NCBI RefSeq assembly: GCF_044324785.1
Contig: NZ_CP172127.1
Reading direction: 5' to 3' (one strand)
DNA: 64,000 nucleotides
Origin: Escherichia coli
Lineage (GTDB): Bacteria; Pseudomonadota; Gammaproteobacteria; Enterobacterales; Enterobacteriaceae
The stretch's first letter is position 1. Every line of letters begins with the position of its first letter. Below, in pieces: positions 1-9,523 of this stretch. The position numbers and the translations under genes were made by a program. The notes beneath the pieces are model-generated. The model was not told where the DNA came from and ran no database searches. It saw only the letters and a program-made list of their open reading frames with translations.

Positions 1-36
1 AGAAACATCTACCTTACCTGCACTGAGGCATTTACT

Positions 37-1395
37 ATGACTCAACGACGTGATTTACAAGCACTGATCGATGCTGCTCCGGTCGGCAAGATGCAGTGGC
101 GCGTTATCATCTGCTGTTTTCTGGTGGTAATGCTCGATGGTTTTGACACCGCGGCTATCGGCTTTATCGCCCCTGATATTCGCACTCACTGGCAACTCAC
201 CGCAGGCGATCTCGCCCCGCTTTTTGGCGCGGGTCTGCTGGGGTTAACCGCAGGCGCACTGCTTTGTGGTCCGTTGTCCGATCGCTTTGGCCGCAAACGT
301 GTGATTGAGCTGTGCGTCTTTTTGTTTGGCGCGTTAAGCCTCGCCTCGGCTTTCTCACCGGATCTGCAAACGCTGGTATTCCTGCGTTTCCTCACCGGCC
401 TTGGGCTGGGTGGCGCGATGCCAAACACAATTACCATGACCTCGGAATATCTGCCTGCCCGCCGCCGCGGCGCGCTGGTGACGCTGATGTTTTGCGGCTT
501 TACCCTGGGTTCGGCGTTTGGCGGGATTGTCAGCGCGCAGCTGGTGCCGGTGATTGGCTGGCACGGGATCCTGGTGTTGGGTGGCGTATTACCGCTGATG
601 CTGTTTGTTGCACTGCTGGTGGTTCTGCCGGAATCGCCACGCTGGCAGGTGCGCCGCCAGCTACCCCAGGCGGTGATTGCGAAAACCGTCAGCGCCATCA
701 CCCGCGAGCGTTATGTCGATACCCACTTTTATCTCATTGAATCAGCCTCCGTTACAAAAGGCAGCATTCGTCAACTGTTTATGGGGCGTCAGTTACCCAT
801 CACGTTGATGCTGTGGGTGGTGTTCTTTATGAGCTTGCTGATTATTTACCTGCTCTCAAGCTGGATGCCAACGCTGCTCAACCATCGCGGCATCGACCTG
901 CAACATGCCTCCTGGGTTACCGCCGCGTTCCAGATTGGCGGTACGTTGGGCGCGCTGGCGCTGGGCGTGCTGATGGATAAGTTCAATCCTTTCCGCGTAC
1001 TGGCGCTGAGCTATGCCATAGGCGCTGTATGCATCGTGATGATTGGCTTAAGCCAGGACGGATTATGGCTAATGGCGCTGGCGATTTTCGGCACCGGCAT
1101 TGGCATCAGCGGATCGCAGGTGGGGCTGAATGCGCTGACCGCAACACTTTATCCAACACAAAGTCGCGCCACGGGCGTGAGCTGGTCAAACGCCGTGGGC
1201 CGCTGCGGCGCGATTGTTGGCTCGCTGTCTGGCGGCGTGATGATGGCGATGAATTTCTCTTTCGACACCCTGTTTTTCATTATCGCTGTGCCCGCGGCGA
1301 TCAGTGCGGTGATGTTAACCCTGCTGATCACCGTGGTTCGCCAGTCGACCTCTGTCCCTGACTCACTGCCTCACGCAGGTGTTGTGAACGAATAA
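37..1395 (+). CDS. mhbT: MFS transporter, aromatic-acid uptake (3-hydroxybenzoate/gentisate transporter, MhbT-like)
   Basis: 452-aa ORF with MFS signature loop (LSDRFGRKR) and multiple hydrophobic spans; first gene of a T-D-H-I-M ordered gentisate cluster; ATG at 37. Confidence 0.75.
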
Positions 1396-1406
1396 GGAGC
1401 ATCCCA

Positions 1407-2435
1407 ATGACTGATAACAATCAAAATAGCCGCGAGCAATTTTATCAGCATATTTCCGGGCAAAACCTGACCCCGCTGTGGGAGTCACTGCACCATCTGG
1501 TGCCAAAAACGCCCAACGCTAACTGTGCGCCAGCGTACTGGAATTATCAGGAGATCCGCCCGCTGCTGCTGGAGAGCGGCAGCCTGATTGGCGCGAAAGA
1601 AGCCGTGCGCCGCGTGCTGGTGCTGGAAAACCCGGCGCTGCGCGGGCAGTCTTCCATCACCGCGACTTTATATGCCGGTTTGCAACTGATCATGCCGGGC
1701 GAAGTGGCACCGAGTCATCGCCATAACCAGTCGGCGCTGCGTTTTATTGTTGAAGGTAAAGGGGCATTCACCGCCGTTGATGGCGAACGCACGCCAATGA
1801 ATGAGGGCGATTTTATCCTGACCCCGCAGTGGCGCTGGCACGATCACGGTAACCCTGGCGACGAACCGGTTATCTGGCTCGATGGGCTGGATCTGCCATT
1901 AGTGAACACTCTGGGCTGCGGTTTTGCCGAAGATTACCCGGAGGAGCAACAACCAGTAACGCGTAAAGAGGGCGATTACCTGCCGCGTTACGCTGCCAAT
2001 ATGTTGCCGCTGTGCCATCAGACCGGGAACTCCTCGCCCATCTTTAACTACCGTTATGACCGTAGCCGCGAAGTGCTACACGATTTAACCCGCCTGGGCG
2101 ATGCCGATGAGTGGGATGGCTACAAAATGCGCTACGTCAACCCGGTCACCGGTGGCTATCCGATGCCGTCGATGGGCGCTTTCCTGCAACTGCTGCCGAA
2201 AGGGTTTGCCTCACGCGTGGCGCGTACCACTGACAGCACCATCTACCATGTGGTGGAAGGTAGCGGGCAGGTCACTATCGGCAATGAAACCTTCAGCTTT
2301 AGTGCAAAAGATATCTTCGTGGTGCCGACCTGGCACGGCGTGTCGTTCCAGACCACGCAAGATACCGTTTTATTTAGTTTTTCGGACAGACCGGTACAAG
2401 AAGCCCTGGGGCTGTTCCGCGAAGCGCGTTATTAA
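1407..2435 (+). CDS. mhbD: gentisate 1,2-dioxygenase (bicupin)
   Basis: 342-aa ORF, cupin His motifs (HRH, WRWHDH), AAGGAG SD 9 nt upstream of ATG; position in cluster. Confidence 0.8.
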
Positions 2436-2450
2436 TTTGGGAGAGAGAAA

Positions 2451-3152
2451 ATGACTCAATACGTATTCGAACCACAAGCGCCCGTTACCGTACCGGTTGT
2501 TGGCAGTGATGAACAATTCCCCGTACGCCGCGTTTACTGCGTCGGACGTAACTATGCCGCCCACGCCCGCGAAATGGGCTTTGATCCGGATCGTGAACCG
2601 CCATTCTTCTTCTGCAAACCGGCGGATGCCGTTGTTCCGGTTGCCGCTGGCGAAACGCTGGCGCTGCCGTATCCGGCGCAGACCGATAACTACCATTATG
2701 AAATTGAACTGGTGGTGGCGATTGGTAAAAAAGGCAGTGATATCCCGCTGGAAAACGCCCATGAATATGTCTGGGGTTATGCCACGGGTCTTGATATGAC
2801 TCGCCGTGACCGTCAAATGGAAATGCGCCAGATGGGCCGCCCGTGGGAAATCGGCAAAGCGTTCGATCTCTCGGCCCCCATCGCGCCGCTGCACAAAGCC
2901 AGCGAAACTGGCGGTATTGATAACGCACCTATCTGGTTACAGGTTAACGGCGAAGATCATCAGCGCAGCGATATTCGTCATCTCATCTGGTCAGTGAATG
3001 AAACCATCAGCTACCTGTCAGGCTTCTTTGAGCTGCAACCGGGCGATCTAATCTTTACCGGTACGCCGGAAGGGGTTGGCCCAGTAGTCAAAGGTGATGT
3101 GATCACGGGCAACGTCGAGGGCTTAACGCCTATCGCGGTGAAGATTGTCTGA
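2451..3152 (+). CDS. mhbH: fumarylpyruvate hydrolase (FAH family)
   Basis: 233-aa ORF typical of fumarylacetoacetate-hydrolase family; follows dioxygenase. Confidence 0.75.
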
Positions 3153-3156
3153 GGTG

Positions 3157-3804
3157 ATGATGAAGCTGTACAGTTTTTTTAATAGTTCAGCGTCTTACCG
3201 GGTGCGCATTGCGCTGGCGCTGAAGGGTATCGATTACCAGACCGAAGGGGTGAATATCCGCATTGGTCAGCAAAACGAACTGGCCTACCGGCGGATGAAT
3301 CCGGTCGGGCTGGTGCCGACGCTGCTGACCGACGAGGGCGAATCACTCGGACAATCGCTGGCGATTATTGACTGGCTGGAGAGTCACTACCCGCAAGTTC
3401 CGCTGATGCCGCAGGAAGAACCGGCCCGCAACAAGGTGCTGGAAATTGTCTATGCCATCGCCTGCGATATTCATCCATTGAATAACCTACGCGTGCTGCG
3501 CTACCTGACCGAAGAGCTGAACGTCAGTGAAGAAGATAAAAAACGCTGGTATGCGCACTGGATCCAGCAAGGGTTAAGCGCGGTGGAACAGCTACTGCGC
3601 CAGAGCCAGTCGGGGCAATTTTGTGTGGGCGAGACGCCGACGCTGGCAGATTGCTGCCTTGTTCCACAGTGGGCGAACGCGCTACGTATGAACTGCGATC
3701 TGAGCGGGTATCCGCGCTGCAAAGCGGTGTACGACGCCTGCACGCAGCTGCCAGCGTTCATTGCCGCAGCGCCAGAAAATCAACAAGATAAAATTTCAGC
3801 CTGA
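3157..3804 (+). CDS. mhbI: maleylpyruvate isomerase (glutathione S-transferase zeta class)
   Basis: GST-fold ORF; ORF-track start at 3145 is TTG, first ATG at 3157 preceded by GAGGTG; overlaps upstream stop. Confidence 0.7.
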   Translation: MMKLYSFFNSSASYRVRIALALKGIDYQTEGVNIRIGQQNELAYRRMNPVGLVPTLLTDEGESLGQSLAIIDWLESHYPQVPLMPQEEPARNKVLEIVYAIACDIHPLNNLRVLRYLTEELNVSEEDKKRWYAHWIQQGLSAVEQLLRQSQSGQFCVGETPTLADCCLVPQWANALRMNCDLSGYPRCKAVYDACTQLPAFIAAAPENQQDKISA

Positions 3805-3818
3805 CCAGGAGAACCATA

Positions 3819-5012
3819 ATGACTAAAGTGACACGCGCAGTAATTGTGGGAGGCGGGATCGGCGGTGCGGCAACTGCGTTGTCACTGGCCCGCCAGGGGA
3901 TCAAAGTGGTGCTGCTGGAAAAGGCGCATGAGATCGGTGAGATTGGCGCAGGTATCCAGTTGGGGCCAAATGCGTTTTCGGCGTTGGATAGCCTCGGCGT
4001 CGGCGAAATCGCCCGCCAGCGCGCGGTATTCACCGATCACATCACCATGATGGATGCGGTAAACGCCGAAGAAGTGGTGCGCATTGAAACCGGTCAGGCC
4101 TTTCGCGATCATTTCGGCGGCCCTTACGCGGTGATCCACCGGGTTGATATTCACGCCTCGGTGTGGGAAGCGGTACTGACGCATCCGGACGTGGAATATC
4201 ACACCTCCACCAACGTCGTGGATATTCGCGAGACAGAAGACGATGTCACCGTTTTCGACGATCGCGGCAATAGTTGGATCGGCGATATTCTGATTGGCTG
4301 TGACGGCGTGAAGTCAGTGGTGCGCCAGAGCTTATTGGGCGATGCGCCGCGTGTCACCGGGCATGTGGTCTACCGTGCGGTTATCGATTGTGCCGATATG
4401 CCGGAAGATTTGCGCATTAACGCACCAGTACTGTGGGCGGGGCCGTGCTGTCACTTGGTGCATTACCCTTTACGCGGCGGCAAGCAGTATAACCTGGTGG
4501 TGACATTCCACAGCCGCCAGCAGGAAGAGTGGGGCGTGAAGGATGGCAGTAAAGAGGAAGTGCTCTCTTACTTTGAAGGGATTCACCCCCGTCCGCGCCA
4601 GATGCTGGATAAACCGACCTCCTGGCGACGCTGGTCAACCGCCGACCGTGAACCGGTAGCGAAGTGGGGAACGAAGCGCATTACGCTGGTGGGCGATGCG
4701 GCCCATCCGGTGGCGCAGTATATGGCGCAGGGTGCCTGTATGGCGCTGGAAGACGCGGTAACACTGGGTAAGGCGCTGGCGCAGTGTGAGGGTGATGCGG
4801 CACAAGCCTTTGCGCTGTATGAGTCGGTACGTATTCCGCGCACCGCGCGCATCGTCTGGTCGACCCGTGAAATGGGGCGGGTTTATCATGCCGCAGGAGT
4901 AGAGCGCCAGGTACGTAACCTGTTGTGGAAAGGGAAATCGCAGGCAGAGTTTTACCGCGGCATGGAGTGGCTGTACGGCTGGAAAGAAGATAACTGTTTG
5001 CAACCACGCTGA
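3819..5012 (+). CDS. mhbM: 3-hydroxybenzoate 6-hydroxylase (FAD-dependent monooxygenase, salicylate hydroxylase family)
   Basis: 397-aa ORF with N-terminal FAD fingerprint [11 protein letters not shown] and DAAH motif; last gene of cluster. Confidence 0.75.
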
Positions 5013-5073
5013 GTACTTTAATCCGTTGACCATAGGCGCTAACATAGCGCCTCATTTTTTTGCGGGTGATGAT

Positions 5074-6021
5074 ATGCGTGTGTTACTGGCTCCGATGGAG
5101 GGTGTGCTTGACTCTCTGGTGCGTGAATTGCTGACCGAAGTTAACGACTACGATCTGTGCATCACCGAGTTTGTCCGCGTGGTGGATCAACTGCTGCCGG
5201 TAAAAGTCTTTCATCGCATTTGCCCTGAGCTACAAAACGCCAGCCGGACACCATCCGGTACGCTGGTGCGCGTGCAGTTGTTAGGTCAGTTCCCACAATG
5301 GCTGGCAGAGAATGCCGCCCGTGCGGTCGAGTTAGGTTCCTGGGGCGTGGATCTCAATTGCGGCTGCCCGTCGAAAACGGTTAACGGTAGCGGCGGTGGG
5401 GCGACGTTACTCAAAGATCCTGAACTCATCTATCAGGGTGCAAAAGCGATGCGCGAAGCTGTACCGGCGCATTTGCCCGTAAGCGTAAAAGTGCGTCTGG
5501 GCTGGGACAGCGGTGAGAAGAAATTTGAAATCGCCGATGCGGTGCAACAGGCTGGCGCTACGGAGCTGGTGGTGCATGGGCGGACAAAAGAGCAGGGTTA
5601 CCGCGCGGAGCATATTGACTGGCAGGCGATTGGCGAGATTCGCCAGCGGCTGAATATTCCGGTGATTGCCAACGGTGAAATCTGGGACTGGCAGAGTGCG
5701 CAACAATGCATGGCGATCAGCGGCTGTGACGCAGTGATGATTGGTCGCGGGGCGCTCAATATTCCCAACCTGAGCCGGGTGGTAAAATATAACGAACCGC
5801 GAATGCCGTGGCCGGAGGTGGTTGCTTTGCTGCAAAAATATACCCGTCTGGAAAAGCAGGGCGATACCGGGTTATATCACGTTGCGCGGATTAAACAGTG
5901 GTTGAGTTATTTGCGTAAAGAATACGATGAAGCAACGGAATTATTTCAGCATGTTCGGGTGTTGAATAATTCCCCTGATATTGCAAGGGCTATTCAGGCA
6001 ATTGATATCGAGAAACTCTAA
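5074..6021 (+). CDS. dusC: tRNA-dihydrouridine(16) synthase DusC
   Basis: 315 aa from internal ATG ([13 protein letters not shown]...) matches K-12 DusC N-terminus; ORF track extends 16 codons upstream. Confidence 0.9.
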
Positions 6022-6252
6022 AAAACCATAGTGATGTTTTTTGACAATGTGTTAGCTCTTTATCAATAGGCCGCACGGTTGTTTGGTGGCGTCAAAATCG
6101 CCGAGGCGTTCCCTGAAGGCCGGGGCAGCCCACATGGATGTGGGCTGAGGGCGCGTTTTACAGGGATAATGAGATGGACGCTCCAGATTTTACGGTATCA
6201 AAGTACCAGACTGGATCGTTGCAATACGTCCTGAAAAATTAGGAGCGTCCAC

Positions 6253-7278
6253 ATGAAAGTATCAACTCTTGGTATCGACCTGGCAAAGAACGTTTTTCAG
6301 CTTCATGGTGTCGATCATGAAGGCCATACTATTTTGCGTAAAAAACTCACCCGGGCTAAGTTTGTTCAGTTTGTGATTCAACTGGAACCTTGTCTGATTG
6401 GCATGGAAGCCTGCTCATCCAGTCATTATTTTGCGCGATTATTCACCCGCTATGGTCATGAGGTAAAACTCATACCTCCGCAGTATGTGAAGCCTTATGT
6501 GAAAACGAACAAGACGGATGCAGCAGATGCTGAAGCAATCTGCGAAGCGGTAACCCGTCCGAATATGCGTTTTGTTCAGATAAAAACCGAAGAGCAGCAG
6601 GCCGTTTTAGCGTTACACACTGAACGGGGAATACTTATCCGTGAGCGGATTGCCTGTGCCAATAGTTTAAGAGCCACACTTGCTGAGTTTGGTATTACGA
6701 TTGCGGCCGGACAAAGCCATTTAACCCGTGAGCTGCCAGCCATTCTGGAGGATGGCGAAAATGGTTTATCTCCCTTTGTCAGAACCAGCATCTACAGACA
6801 GTCTAAACATATCCGGGAACTTGAAGAACAAGTTAAACAGGTAGAAGAAGCTCTGGCCTCCTGGTATAGAACGCAGGAAGCCTGCCAGAGAATGGCCAAA
6901 ATCCCGGGGGTTGGCATGCTAACGGCCACTTATGTGGTAGCAGCAGTGGGTAATGCCCGACAATTCAGTACCGCAAAGCAGTTCGCTTCATGGCTGGGGC
7001 TGACACCAAAGGAACATTCCAGCGGCGGGAAACAGCAACTGGGAGGGATCAGCAAACGTGGAGATGGATATTTCCGATACCTGCTGGTTCACGGCGCACG
7101 CGCACTTACCGCCTGGGTCAACCGAAACGGCGCGGTTGAGGAGAATTCCTGGCTTCAGGGACTCCTTGAGCGGAAGCACTACAATGTAGCTGTTGTCGCC
7201 ATGGCGGCAAAAACAGCGAGGATCATGTGGTCAATGTTGTCACACAATACTGAATATCAACCTCGGCAGCTCGCCTGA
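6253..7278 (+). CDS. IS110-family DEDD transposase/recombinase
   Basis: 341-aa ORF, N-terminal LGIDLAK RuvC-like motif, strong similarity in pattern to IS4321/IS5075-type transposases. Confidence 0.9.
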   Translation: MKVSTLGIDLAKNVFQLHGVDHEGHTILRKKLTRAKFVQFVIQLEPCLIGMEACSSSHYFARLFTRYGHEVKLIPPQYVKPYVKTNKTDAADAEAICEAVTRPNMRFVQIKTEEQQAVLALHTERGILIRERIACANSLRATLAEFGITIAAGQSHLTRELPAILEDGENGLSPFVRTSIYRQSKHIRELEEQVKQVEEALASWYRTQEACQRMAKIPGVGMLTATYVVAAVGNARQFSTAKQFASWLGLTPKEHSSGGKQQLGGISKRGDGYFRYLLVHGARALTAWVNRNGAVEENSWLQGLLERKHYNVAVVAMAAKTARIMWSMLSHNTEYQPRQLA

Positions 7279-7538
7279 CACAAGGTCAGTCAATCTGACG
7301 AGGTGCTGAAAAAAAGTTAACGTCCTGGTAGGTGCAGGTGACTTCAGAAGATGGCAAAACAGGTAAGACCGCAGGCAGGATACACCGAGAGGTAACAAGG
7401 GCAAGTTAGCCCGTAGAGGATGATTGGTACCTGCCTGGCGGATTTCATCATGGTTCGGGATAAAAATCCCATCAGAAACCGGATATATGGCTGCACCTAC
7501 CCGTTTTATTACATAACTGAAGAAAGCATTGCATTCCG
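7279..7538 (+). ncRNA. candidate IS-encoded structured ncRNA (bridge/seek-RNA-like) in 3' non-coding end of the IS
   Basis: 260-nt non-coding stretch between transposase stop and right IR containing 11-bp long-range inverted repeat GGTAGGTGCAG (7327-7337) / CTGCACCTACC (7491-7501). Confidence 0.3.
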
Positions 7539-7779
7539 GGAGCGTCCATATATGTTACCTCGCGCCCGACCCGGTAGCCGTAAGGGATAAGCCGAGGGCA
7601 CCGCGCAGCGGCGATTTTGTTCGCCAGAGCCCGGGGGTGCAGGGGGCGGCGGCGATTGGCCGCCCCCTGCGCGCTCCTTGCGCCAGTGATTATATGAAGC
7701 AATGCACATGACAGGAGCGCAACAGGATGAGAGACTGAAATATTCTCGTTATTTTCGGATCTGATGACATTAATTAATT

Positions 7780-7863
7780 TTAAAATATCATCTTAAATAC
7801 GCCAGTCACCACCAGTAGCCCAATCAGGAAAATAATCAATACAGCCCAGAGTATAATTTTCAT
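7780..7863 (-). CDS. yohP: small membrane protein YohP (27 aa)
   Basis: Manual translation of minus strand gives MKIILWAVLIIFLIGLLVVTGVFKMIF; below ORF-track length cut-off. Confidence 0.85.
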   Translation of the reverse strand: MKIILWAVLIIFLIGLLVVTGVFKMIF

Positions 7864-8086
7864 TGGCGTTCCTTTATTTGTGAGTGCTGAATAAGTATAG
7901 GAAAAAACGAAGTCCTTTGCCGTTATCCATAAACGATTAAGATAAATCGGAAGATATCATTCACTTAGTGTATATTTTTCTGGATATGTCATATTATTGC
8001 CACTGATGTTTTGCCACGCGAAACTAAAAAATATATCGCAACACACGGTAATCTCCGCGCACCTTTTCTTACCTGATTATTCCCCC

Positions 8087-9523
8087 ATGAATCGTGATTC
8101 CTTTTATCCCGCCATCGCCTGTTTTCCGCTGTTACTGATGCTGGCCGGGTGTGCGCCTATGCATGAAACCCGCCAGGCGTTAAGCCAGCAAACGCCTGCT
8201 GCACAAGTTGACACCGCATTACCCACGGCGCTGAAAAATGGTTGGCCAGACAGCCAATGGTGGCTGGAGTATCACGATAATCAGCTCACTTCCTTAATTA
8301 ACAATGCACTACAGAACGCACCGGATATGCAGGTGGCTGAACAGCGCATTCAGCTAGCTGAAGCCCAGGCGAAGGCAGTTGCTACTCAGGATGGTCCGCA
8401 GATCGACTTTTCTGCGGATATGGAGCGGCAAAAAATGTCGGCAGAAGGGTTAATGGGGCCGTTTGCTCTGAACGATCCTGCCGCAGGTACGACCGGTCCG
8501 TGGTACACCAACGGTACTTTTGGCTTAACGGCGGGCTGGCATCTCGATATCTGGGGAAAGAATCGGGCGGAGGTAACTGCTCGCCTGGGTACGGTTAAAG
8601 CACGAGCGGCGGAACGCGAGCAAACCCGCCAATTGCTGGCTGGCAGCGTAGCCCGCCTGTACTGGGAGTGGCAAACCCAGGCGGCGTTAAACACTGTCTT
8701 ACAGCAAATCGAAAAAGAGCAGAACACCATTATCGCCACCGATCGCCAGCTATATCAGAACGGGATTACTTCTTCAGTTGAAGGTGTGGAAACCGATATT
8801 AATGCCAGCAAAACCCGGCAGCAGCTCAACGATGTCGCGGGGAAAATGAAAATTATTGAGGCACGGTTAAGCGCACTTACAAATCACCAGACAAAGTCAC
8901 TGAAGCTTAAACCGGTCGCGTTGCCGAAAGTGGCAAGCCAGCTTCCTGATGAACTGGGGTACTCCTTACTGGCGCGGCGGGCAGATTTGCAGGCGGCGCA
9001 CTGGTACGTTGAGTCATCGTTAAGCACCATTGATGCGGCAAAAGCGGCATTTTATCCTGACATCAACCTGATGGCCTTCCTGCAACAGGATGCGTTGCAC
9101 TTAAGCGATCTGTTCCGTCATTCCGCGCAGCAAATGGGCGTTACGGCAGGCCTGACGCTACCCATTTTCGATAGTGGTCGTCTTAACGCCAATCTCGATA
9201 TCGCAAAAGCCGAAAGCAACTTGTCTATCGCCAGCTACAACAAAGCGGTGGTTGAAGCGGTGAATGACGTGGCGCGGGCAGCCAGTCAGGTTCAGACACT
9301 GGCGGAGAAAAACCAGCATCAGGCGCAAATTGAGCGCGATGCCTTGCGTGTAGTTGGTCTTGCGCAGGCGCGCTTTAACGCGGGCATCATTGCCGGTTCC
9401 CGCGTCAGCGAAGCCAGAATCCCGGCGCTTCGCGAGCGGGCCAATGGCCTGTTATTGCAAGGGCAGTGGCTGGATGCCTCCATTCAACTCACTGGTGCGT
9501 TGGGCGGGGGTTACAAACGCTGA
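8087..9523 (+). CDS. mdtQ: outer-membrane efflux channel (TolC/OprM family) MdtQ, intact
   Basis: 478 aa from ATG at 8087 (MNRDSFYPAIACFPLLLMLAGC lipobox); uninterrupted reading frame. Confidence 0.85.
   Translation: MNRDSFYPAIACFPLLLMLAGCAPMHETRQALSQQTPAAQVDTALPTALKNGWPDSQWWLEYHDNQLTSLINNALQNAPDMQVAEQRIQLAEAQAKAVATQDGPQIDFSADMERQKMSAEGLMGPFALNDPAAGTTGPWYTNGTFGLTAGWHLDIWGKNRAEVTARLGTVKARAAEREQTRQLLAGSVARLYWEWQTQAALNTVLQQIEKEQNTIIATDRQLYQNGITSSVEGVETDINASKTRQQLNDVAGKMKIIEARLSALTNHQTKSLKLKPVALPKVASQLPDELGYSLLARRADLQAAHWYVESSLSTIDAAKAAFYPDINLMAFLQQDALHLSDLFRHSAQQMGVTAGLTLPIFDSGRLNANLDIAKAESNLSIASYNKAVVEAVNDVARAASQVQTLAEKNQHQAQIERDALRVVGLAQARFNAGIIAGSRVSEARIPALRERANGLLLQGQWLDASIQLTGALGGGYKR

Follow-up and report, generated by a model that had tools for sequence, protein, structure and literature searches.

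We analyzed a 64,000-nucleotide stretch of Escherichia coli DNA (contig NZ_CP172127.1 of assembly GCF_044324785.1; hereafter the window), which opens with five intact open reading frames (ORFs) between positions 37 and 5012, all on the + strand and with dusC immediately 3′ of them. With high confidence, we assign these genes to the enterobacterial mhbR/mhbTDHIM operon, which serves catabolism of 3-hydroxybenzoate via gentisate and of which they make up the structural part, mhbTDHIM. An initial annotation had proposed five co-directional genes of this pathway adjoining dusC, and both the arrangement and the identity of the products held up: three family models score over their cut-offs, and solved relatives and orthology agree with them. 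The cluster is already known. RefSeq uses the names mhbT, gtdA, maiA, and 3-hydroxybenzoate 6-monooxygenase in sequence that matches the window at 99.7% identity, and the anatomy shows no departure from the known system. It thus carries little weight as a discovery, with its genes named, its pathway known for decades from Klebsiella and Salmonella, and the structure of the O157:H7 dioxygenase solved.

The products were assigned with NCBIfam models and their curated cut-offs, with scores given in bits. MhbD scored 598.6 against the gentisate 1,2-dioxygenase model TIGR02272 (cut-off 442.1) and matched PDB 2D40, an O157:H7 “putative gentisate 1,2-dioxygenase,” with 790 bits over residues 1 to 342; the protein is 98.5% identical to its O157 counterpart. 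It keeps His104, His106, and His145, which we take to be the bicupin ligands of gentisate 1,2-dioxygenase (Adams 2006). According to PMC4585797, the O157:H7 enzyme has been crystallized and was active in vitro (Adams 2006, cited there). MhbM reached 755.8 against the 3-hydroxybenzoate 6-monooxygenase model NF006021 (cut-off 459). Its best PDB match was the 4BJY group (267 bits), presumably the Rhodococcus jostii 3-hydroxybenzoate 6-hydroxylase. MhbM retains the motifs GxGxGG (residues 11 to 16), DG (162), and GD (292), as well as Arg169, His212, and Tyr216, the last two of which align with His213 and Tyr217 of 4BJY. In PMC6043778, Tyr217 of the R. jostii enzyme binds the substrate carboxylate, and a study in its reference list found Arg169 to be essential in Klebsiella MhbM (Liu 2005).

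The third model over its cut-off was TIGR01262, for maleylacetoacetate-type isomerases, which MhbI matched with 308.7 (cut-off 171). Its nearest solved relatives are PDB 6JWK (235.7 bits) and the maleylpyruvate isomerase NagL (2V6K/2JL4, 166.9 bits), and the genomic context suggests that it prefers maleylpyruvate over maleylacetoacetate. Over all of its 452 residues, MhbT shares 87% identity with Klebsiella oxytoca proteins that bear the same name and are encoded at the same genomic position, and it is 88% identical to Salmonella homologues. RefSeq calls the identical E. coli gene mhbT. The transporter named by the initial annotation is therefore an ortholog of Klebsiella MhbT along its full length. 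The nearest solved relatives of MhbH are 6J5Y (380.8 bits) and 4MAQ, a “putative fumarylpyruvate hydrolase” (250.8 bits), as compared with only 82 bits for the maleylpyruvate hydrolase 6JVV, and it is 91% identical to the Klebsiella ortholog in the same position. The substrates given below for MhbT, MhbH, and MhbI are thus the probable ones.

The steps proposed here follow the pathway of Klebsiella M5a1 as summarized in PMC3572157 and PMC5343071. MhbT would bring in 3-hydroxybenzoate, which MhbM, using flavin adenine dinucleotide (FAD) and reduced nicotinamide adenine dinucleotide, would hydroxylate para to the existing hydroxyl to give gentisate. The Fe2+ enzyme MhbD would then open the gentisate ring to maleylpyruvate, MhbI with glutathione would isomerize this to fumarylpyruvate (the glutathione dependence being expected from its zeta-class glutathione S-transferase (GST) family), and MhbH would split fumarylpyruvate into fumarate and pyruvate. 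Transcription would be activated by MhbR, a divergently encoded LysR-type protein. The five genes probably form a single transcript and should allow growth on 3-hydroxybenzoate; a single mhbT-M transcript fits the short gaps between the genes and the lack of convincing internal promoters or terminators. Promoter-like sites inside the cluster numbered 6 where 6.8 were expected by chance, so we claim no internal promoters.

The closest described system is mhbRTDHIM of Klebsiella pneumoniae/oxytoca M5a1, whose six genes match those of the E. coli locus in order and orientation, a LysR-type regulator again being encoded divergently (Jones and Cooper 1990; Lin et al. 2010; Xu et al. 2012; as cited in PMC3572157 and PMC5343071). 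For sequence comparison, type strains of related species served as proxies for M5a1. Orthologs in K. michiganensis, K. grimontii, and K. spallanzanii are 84 to 91% identical at the amino acid level and occupy the same yohJ-dusC chromosomal site in another host species. Protein lengths match or nearly match, with 214 residues for MhbI and 397 for MhbM in both, 232 in Klebsiella versus 233 here for MhbH, and 345 versus 342 for MhbD. The mhbM-dusC spacer is 61 nt here, as opposed to 143 to 200 nt in Klebsiella. The gentisate cluster of E. coli O157:H7 shares both the site and the gene order of the window. In Ralstonia sp. U2, the nag genes are part of a naphthalene/salicylate operon that works via salicylate 5-hydroxylase, with another regulator and without MhbM or MhbT. 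Its nagI-nagK-nagL genes perform the same chemistry downstream of gentisate, with a cupin dioxygenase, a glutathione-dependent zeta-class isomerase, and an FAH-family fumarylpyruvate hydrolase (reference list of PMC11603403), although their sequence similarity to the window proteins is much lower. In another enterobacterium, Salmonella typhimurium, m-hydroxybenzoate and gentisate both support growth (Goetz and Harmuth 1992, cited in PMC3572157).

Each of the five mhb ORFs is full length when compared with its orthologs (Table 1). The sequence of E. coli AST215 is 99.7% identical to positions 1 to 6100 of the window. With the RefSeq starts, the gaps between successive genes are 11, 15, 7, and 14 nt, and the starts are preceded, in order, by the Shine-Dalgarno-like motifs GAGG, AAGGAG, GGGAGAG, GAGG, and AGGAG. 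For mhbI, alternative starts exist at ATG 3157 and at TTG 3145, the latter of which would overlap mhbH by 8 nt. ATG 3160 is more likely and TTG 3145 unlikely, because the former is the RefSeq start, lies 5 nt past GAGG, and gives a protein of 214 residues like Klebsiella MhbI (length from PMC3572157), and because the TIGR01262 model begins there too. The initial annotation had described genes separated by a few nucleotides or overlapping; the short gaps are there, but with ATG 3160 no overlap is left. The dusC ORF is open from 5026, with the RefSeq start as tabulated, and the gene is a flanking core gene outside the pathway.

Table 1. Positions of the mhb genes and associated features in the window
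Feature	Position	Strand	Description
Control region	1..36	+	Final 36 nt of the divergent spacer (126 bp) between mhbR and mhbT; mhbT ribosome-binding motif GAGG at 25-28
mhbT	37..1395	+	452 aa, major facilitator superfamily aromatic acid/H+ symporter, probable 3-hydroxybenzoate transporter
mhbD (gtdA)	1407..2435	+	342 aa, gentisate 1,2-dioxygenase
mhbH	2451..3152	+	233 aa, FAH-family hydrolase, probable fumarylpyruvate hydrolase
mhbI (maiA)	3160..3804	+	214 aa, zeta-class GST, probable glutathione-dependent maleylpyruvate isomerase
mhbM	3819..5012	+	397 aa, FAD-dependent 3-hydroxybenzoate 6-monooxygenase
Right edge of segment absent from K-12	5013..5015	.	BLASTN of K-12 against locus L001 and against the window
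Terminator-like hairpin and T7	5034..5062 (hairpin 5034-5052)	+	8-9 bp stem, 3-nt loop
dusC	5074..6021	+	tRNA dihydrouridine(16) synthase; NF007838, 696.5 vs cut-off 395

The initial annotation had found no regulator in the window and expected a divergent LysR-type gene left of position 1. Both statements proved accurate: mhbT starts at 37, and genomes 99.7% identical to the window carry such a gene. In AST215, it encodes a 302-residue LysR-family protein on the opposite strand, 126 bp upstream of mhbT, and is followed further out by yohJ, yohK, and cdd. The protein is PcaQ-like, with a score under that model's cut-off. An alignment of the intergenic region from 18 loci revealed a near-invariant dyad, ATAACCTCCAGGTTAT, beside the mhbR start codon, which, like the LysR gene, lies left of window position 1. 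The same alignment contains further conserved blocks closer to mhbT, such as “ctgaggca.” The dyad is a plausible candidate for a LysR-type binding site, probably bound by MhbR.

At the other end of the cluster, a hairpin of the form GAGGCGCTA-ACA-TAGCGCCTC begins 21 nt after mhbM ends, and the T-run that follows it stops 11 nt short of the dusC ATG. Among the five terminator-like sites in positions 1 to 8100, it heads the list and has the longest stem, with an RNA fold of −18.8 kcal/mol (z = −2.8). Its sequence is kept in 13 of 13 aligned enterobacterial loci and also in K-12, which is without mhb. Terminator-like sites in the scan were not enriched (5 found versus 8.8 expected), so the case for a terminator comes from the conservation and the fold and not from the scan. 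The hairpin is probably the 3′ end of the mhb operon transcript, and together with its T7 run, it could couple dusC expression to the mhb locus. In O157:H7 and some other lineages, the mhbM-dusC spacer is 159 nt (L084 14013-14171 in O157:H7), in contrast to the 61 nt of the window; the extra ~98 nt of O157:H7 are a GC-rich, palindromic insert, similar to repetitive extragenic palindromic elements, upstream of the conserved hairpin. An Rfam scan of positions 1 to 8200 at E ≤ 1 returned nothing matching the cluster or the hairpin, and its sole, sub-threshold match was AgvB-like, at 7697-7757, with 22.9 bits where the gathering score is 56.

Several points weigh against the assignment of the window genes to a working mhb operon. 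Because only 36 nt precede mhbT, the regulator is not visible within the window. With a terminator 11 nt before dusC, a promoter for that gene could not fit downstream of it, and the transcription of dusC is thereby unexplained. Neither the transporter nor the hydrolase meets an NCBIfam cut-off: MhbT falls under those for the PcaK, AAHS, and MhpT models, narrowly so for the AAHS model TIGR00895 (379.7 versus 418.55), and MhbH has FAH-family matches only and reaches no equivalog cut-off. Their substrates therefore lean on orthology and genomic context. Our literature search returned no paper on E. coli growth with 3-hydroxybenzoate, and our searches on gentisate in connection with O-islands, dusC, or phylogroups gave nothing on the E. 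coli locus. The use of 3-hydroxybenzoate by this strain is a prediction read from its genes.

As the initial annotation had stated, K-12 has no cluster at this position. In K-12 MG1655, dusC and yohJ are only 238 bp apart, and a 6,069-bp segment (L001 6947-13015, ending at window position 5015) is replaced by a 105-bp filler; homology to K-12 starts again at window position 5016. The filler (L002 6445-6549) contains a strong hairpin, AGAGGGATTGC...GCAATCCCTCT, and folds as a whole with −36.1 kcal/mol. It has no similarity to the window or to any fetched mhb locus, even at the level of 7-nt words, so the deletion junction bears no recognizable scar. Among 5,426 complete E. coli genomes, 611 carry the cluster, 504 (about 9%) have the native yohJ-mhbR junction, and 4,918 have the K-12-type empty site with the filler. 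From the 611 carriers and 504 native junctions, we infer that roughly 107 genomes (about 2%) combine an empty native site with a cluster elsewhere. The window copy is of the native-site form. The cluster is of modest value as a catabolic trait that varies among strains and occurs in 11% of complete genomes; it could mark lineages or help determine a niche based on aromatic acids from plant polyphenols.

We also scanned one genome per species with MhbM and mapped the recovered loci by tblastn. The scan returned loci from many Enterobacteriaceae, and the order cdd-yohK-yohJ-mhbR/mhbT-D-H-I-M-dusC(-mdtQ) was found in Klebsiella and at least nine further genera. The loci include five Citrobacter species and three Klebsiella species (K. 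michiganensis, K. grimontii, and K. spallanzanii), as well as Raoultella, Pseudocitrobacter, Kluyvera, Pluralibacter, Pseudenterobacter, and Shimwellia. The transporter-dioxygenase-hydrolase-isomerase-hydroxylase order of the Klebsiella loci is that of the window, as the initial annotation had proposed. E. albertii shows the same order as far as mhbM, where its contig ends, and Salmonella diarizonae shows the right half, mhbH-mhbI-mhbM-dusC-mdtQ, with the left half outside the retrieved DNA. Nucleotide identity to the E. coli copy was about 90% in E. albertii for both the mhb genes and the flanking core genes; the respective values were 81 to 85% and 79 to 83% in Citrobacter, 74 to 83% and 77 to 80% in Klebsiella, and 72 to 81% and 71 to 76% in Shimwellia. 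Since mhb divergence keeps pace with that of the core genes on either side, we infer vertical descent from a common ancestor at this site, and the most likely reading of these comparisons is that mhb is ancestral between yohJ and dusC and was lost from most E. coli. The term “accessory” used by the initial annotation thus holds in that some E. coli carry the cluster and others do not, but synteny of the locus extends across Enterobacteriaceae, and the K-12 state is better read as a loss than as an island never acquired. It would be a clean case of a seemingly “accessory” locus of ancestral origin that most of the species lost and that insertion sequences (IS) later remobilized.

One more observation concerns Serratia marcescens, in which two loci (L019 and L023) contain all six mhb genes, at 84 to 92% amino acid identity to E. 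coli and without yohJ or dusC flanks. This identity seems higher than expected for Yersiniaceae and therefore suggests transfer from Enterobacteriaceae.

The cluster could instead be a genomic island that some E. coli lineages recently acquired at the yohJ-dusC site, as the initial annotation implied by “accessory”; we regard this as unlikely. Its restricted carriage within the species would fit such an acquisition, and the GC content of the mhb genes (0.54 to 0.58) and their GC content at third codon positions (GC3, 0.56 to 0.67) are somewhat over those of most neighbors. The cluster can also move, as the IS-flanked copies on plasmids and beside cadC attest. An island is nevertheless hard to reconcile with a gene order conserved across genera, with mhb identities (about 90, 82, 80, and 75%) that in every genus follow those of the neighboring core genes, and with native junctions that have no integrase, tRNA, IS, or direct repeat. 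The alleles of the window lineage and O157 point the same way, as the cluster has diverged more, not less, between them (94-97% nucleotide identity) than the left flank has (98.5-99.2%). A foreign origin read from base composition was considered and rejected, as the GC3 of mhb overlaps that of neighboring core genes (0.50 to 0.64).

Ectopic copies were seen in two contexts. On the 186-kb plasmid pOkiPb01690_1, from bovine feces, mhbR-mhbTDHIM (L083 6220-14322) lies between IS1A and IS1414, in a block that adjoins STa enterotoxin, S6 peptidase, and F4-type fimbrial genes. In the chromosome of O145 strain RM8843, the cluster (L088 1-11013) sits beside cadC in an island with many IS3, IS66, and ISEc60 elements. 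Thirteen Escherichia records in PLSDB match mhb, one of which is probably a chromosome, given its length of 4.9 Mb. Tentatively, most E. coli may have lost the ancestral mhb genes through one old deletion, marked by the 105-bp filler, and some pathotypes may have regained them via IS-flanked plasmids or islands; we consider this full scenario possible, though doubtful. If it were true, the pattern of loss and regain would point to selection for the use, in the gut, of plant- or microbiota-derived 3-hydroxybenzoate or gentisate.

Less likely still is that E. coli keeps the operon in a cryptic or decaying state without using it for growth, or that it has another role, such as detoxifying hydroxybenzoates. 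The loss of the cluster from most of the species and the lack of growth reports in our literature search would agree with decay, as would an E. coli-like contig (L003) without mhbH and mhbI. The window copy itself does not look decayed, as all five of its ORFs are intact and have kept their ribosome-binding sites and catalytic residues. The cluster of the window lineage is 94.4 to 96.8% identical to that of O157 at the nucleotide level, and the encoded proteins are 97.7 to 99.1% identical; mhbT, for example, differs by 4.3% in nucleotides and 0.9% in protein. These differences are mostly synonymous (98-99% amino acid versus 95-97% nucleotide identity in round figures), which argues that the mhb genes are under purifying selection. 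The repeated recruitment of the cluster onto plasmids and islands likewise argues for a selectable function, and the in vitro activity of the O157 dioxygenase mentioned above also speaks against decay.

The contig in question, JAIJJM010000061.1, is labeled as a Collinsella sp. metagenome-assembled genome, and its mhbR, mhbT, and mhbM are 98 to 99% identical to those of E. coli. It is therefore almost certainly mis-binned Escherichia DNA. In addition to the absence of mhbH and mhbI, its mhbD is truncated, by deletion or misassembly.

Very improbable is an entry substrate other than 3-hydroxybenzoate, namely salicylate, 5-aminosalicylate, or homogentisate: the depositors of 4BJY labeled it a “probable salicylate monooxygenase” and TIGR01262 is named for maleylacetoacetate, a homogentisate-pathway substrate, but MhbM scored only 139 against the salicylate 1-monooxygenase model (cut-off 446), far from its score with the 3-hydroxybenzoate model, the NCBIfam scan gave 242 for the 5-aminosalicylate dioxygenase model (cut-off 650) and no homogentisate dioxygenase match for the MhbD cupin, His213 and Tyr217 of 4BJY are conserved in MhbM (PMC6043778 for the role of Tyr217), and the close solved relatives of MhbI include NagL, which is a true maleylpyruvate isomerase. 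The salicylate and homogentisate assignments that the initial annotation had named as grounds for abandoning its proposal thus did not materialize, with the competing models under their cut-offs or unmatched.

Downstream of the cluster, a 1,384-bp IS110-family element occupies positions 6168-7551, between dusC and yohP, as compared with K-12 and AST215. Its transposase ORF (6253-7278, + strand) matches the “RNA-guided transposase” model NF033542 with 359 bits. The element occurs in 179 of the 5,426 complete E. coli genomes, with 1 to 4 copies each, and in 175 of these the identity to it is 99% or more. The dusC-yohP spacer that it interrupts is a GC-rich, repeat-like sequence of ~270 bp. In O157:H7 (L084 15162-15433), this spacer is inverted with respect to K-12, with 88.6% identity on the opposite strand, and in the window (6083-6166 and 7554-7739), it is split midway by the IS110-family element.

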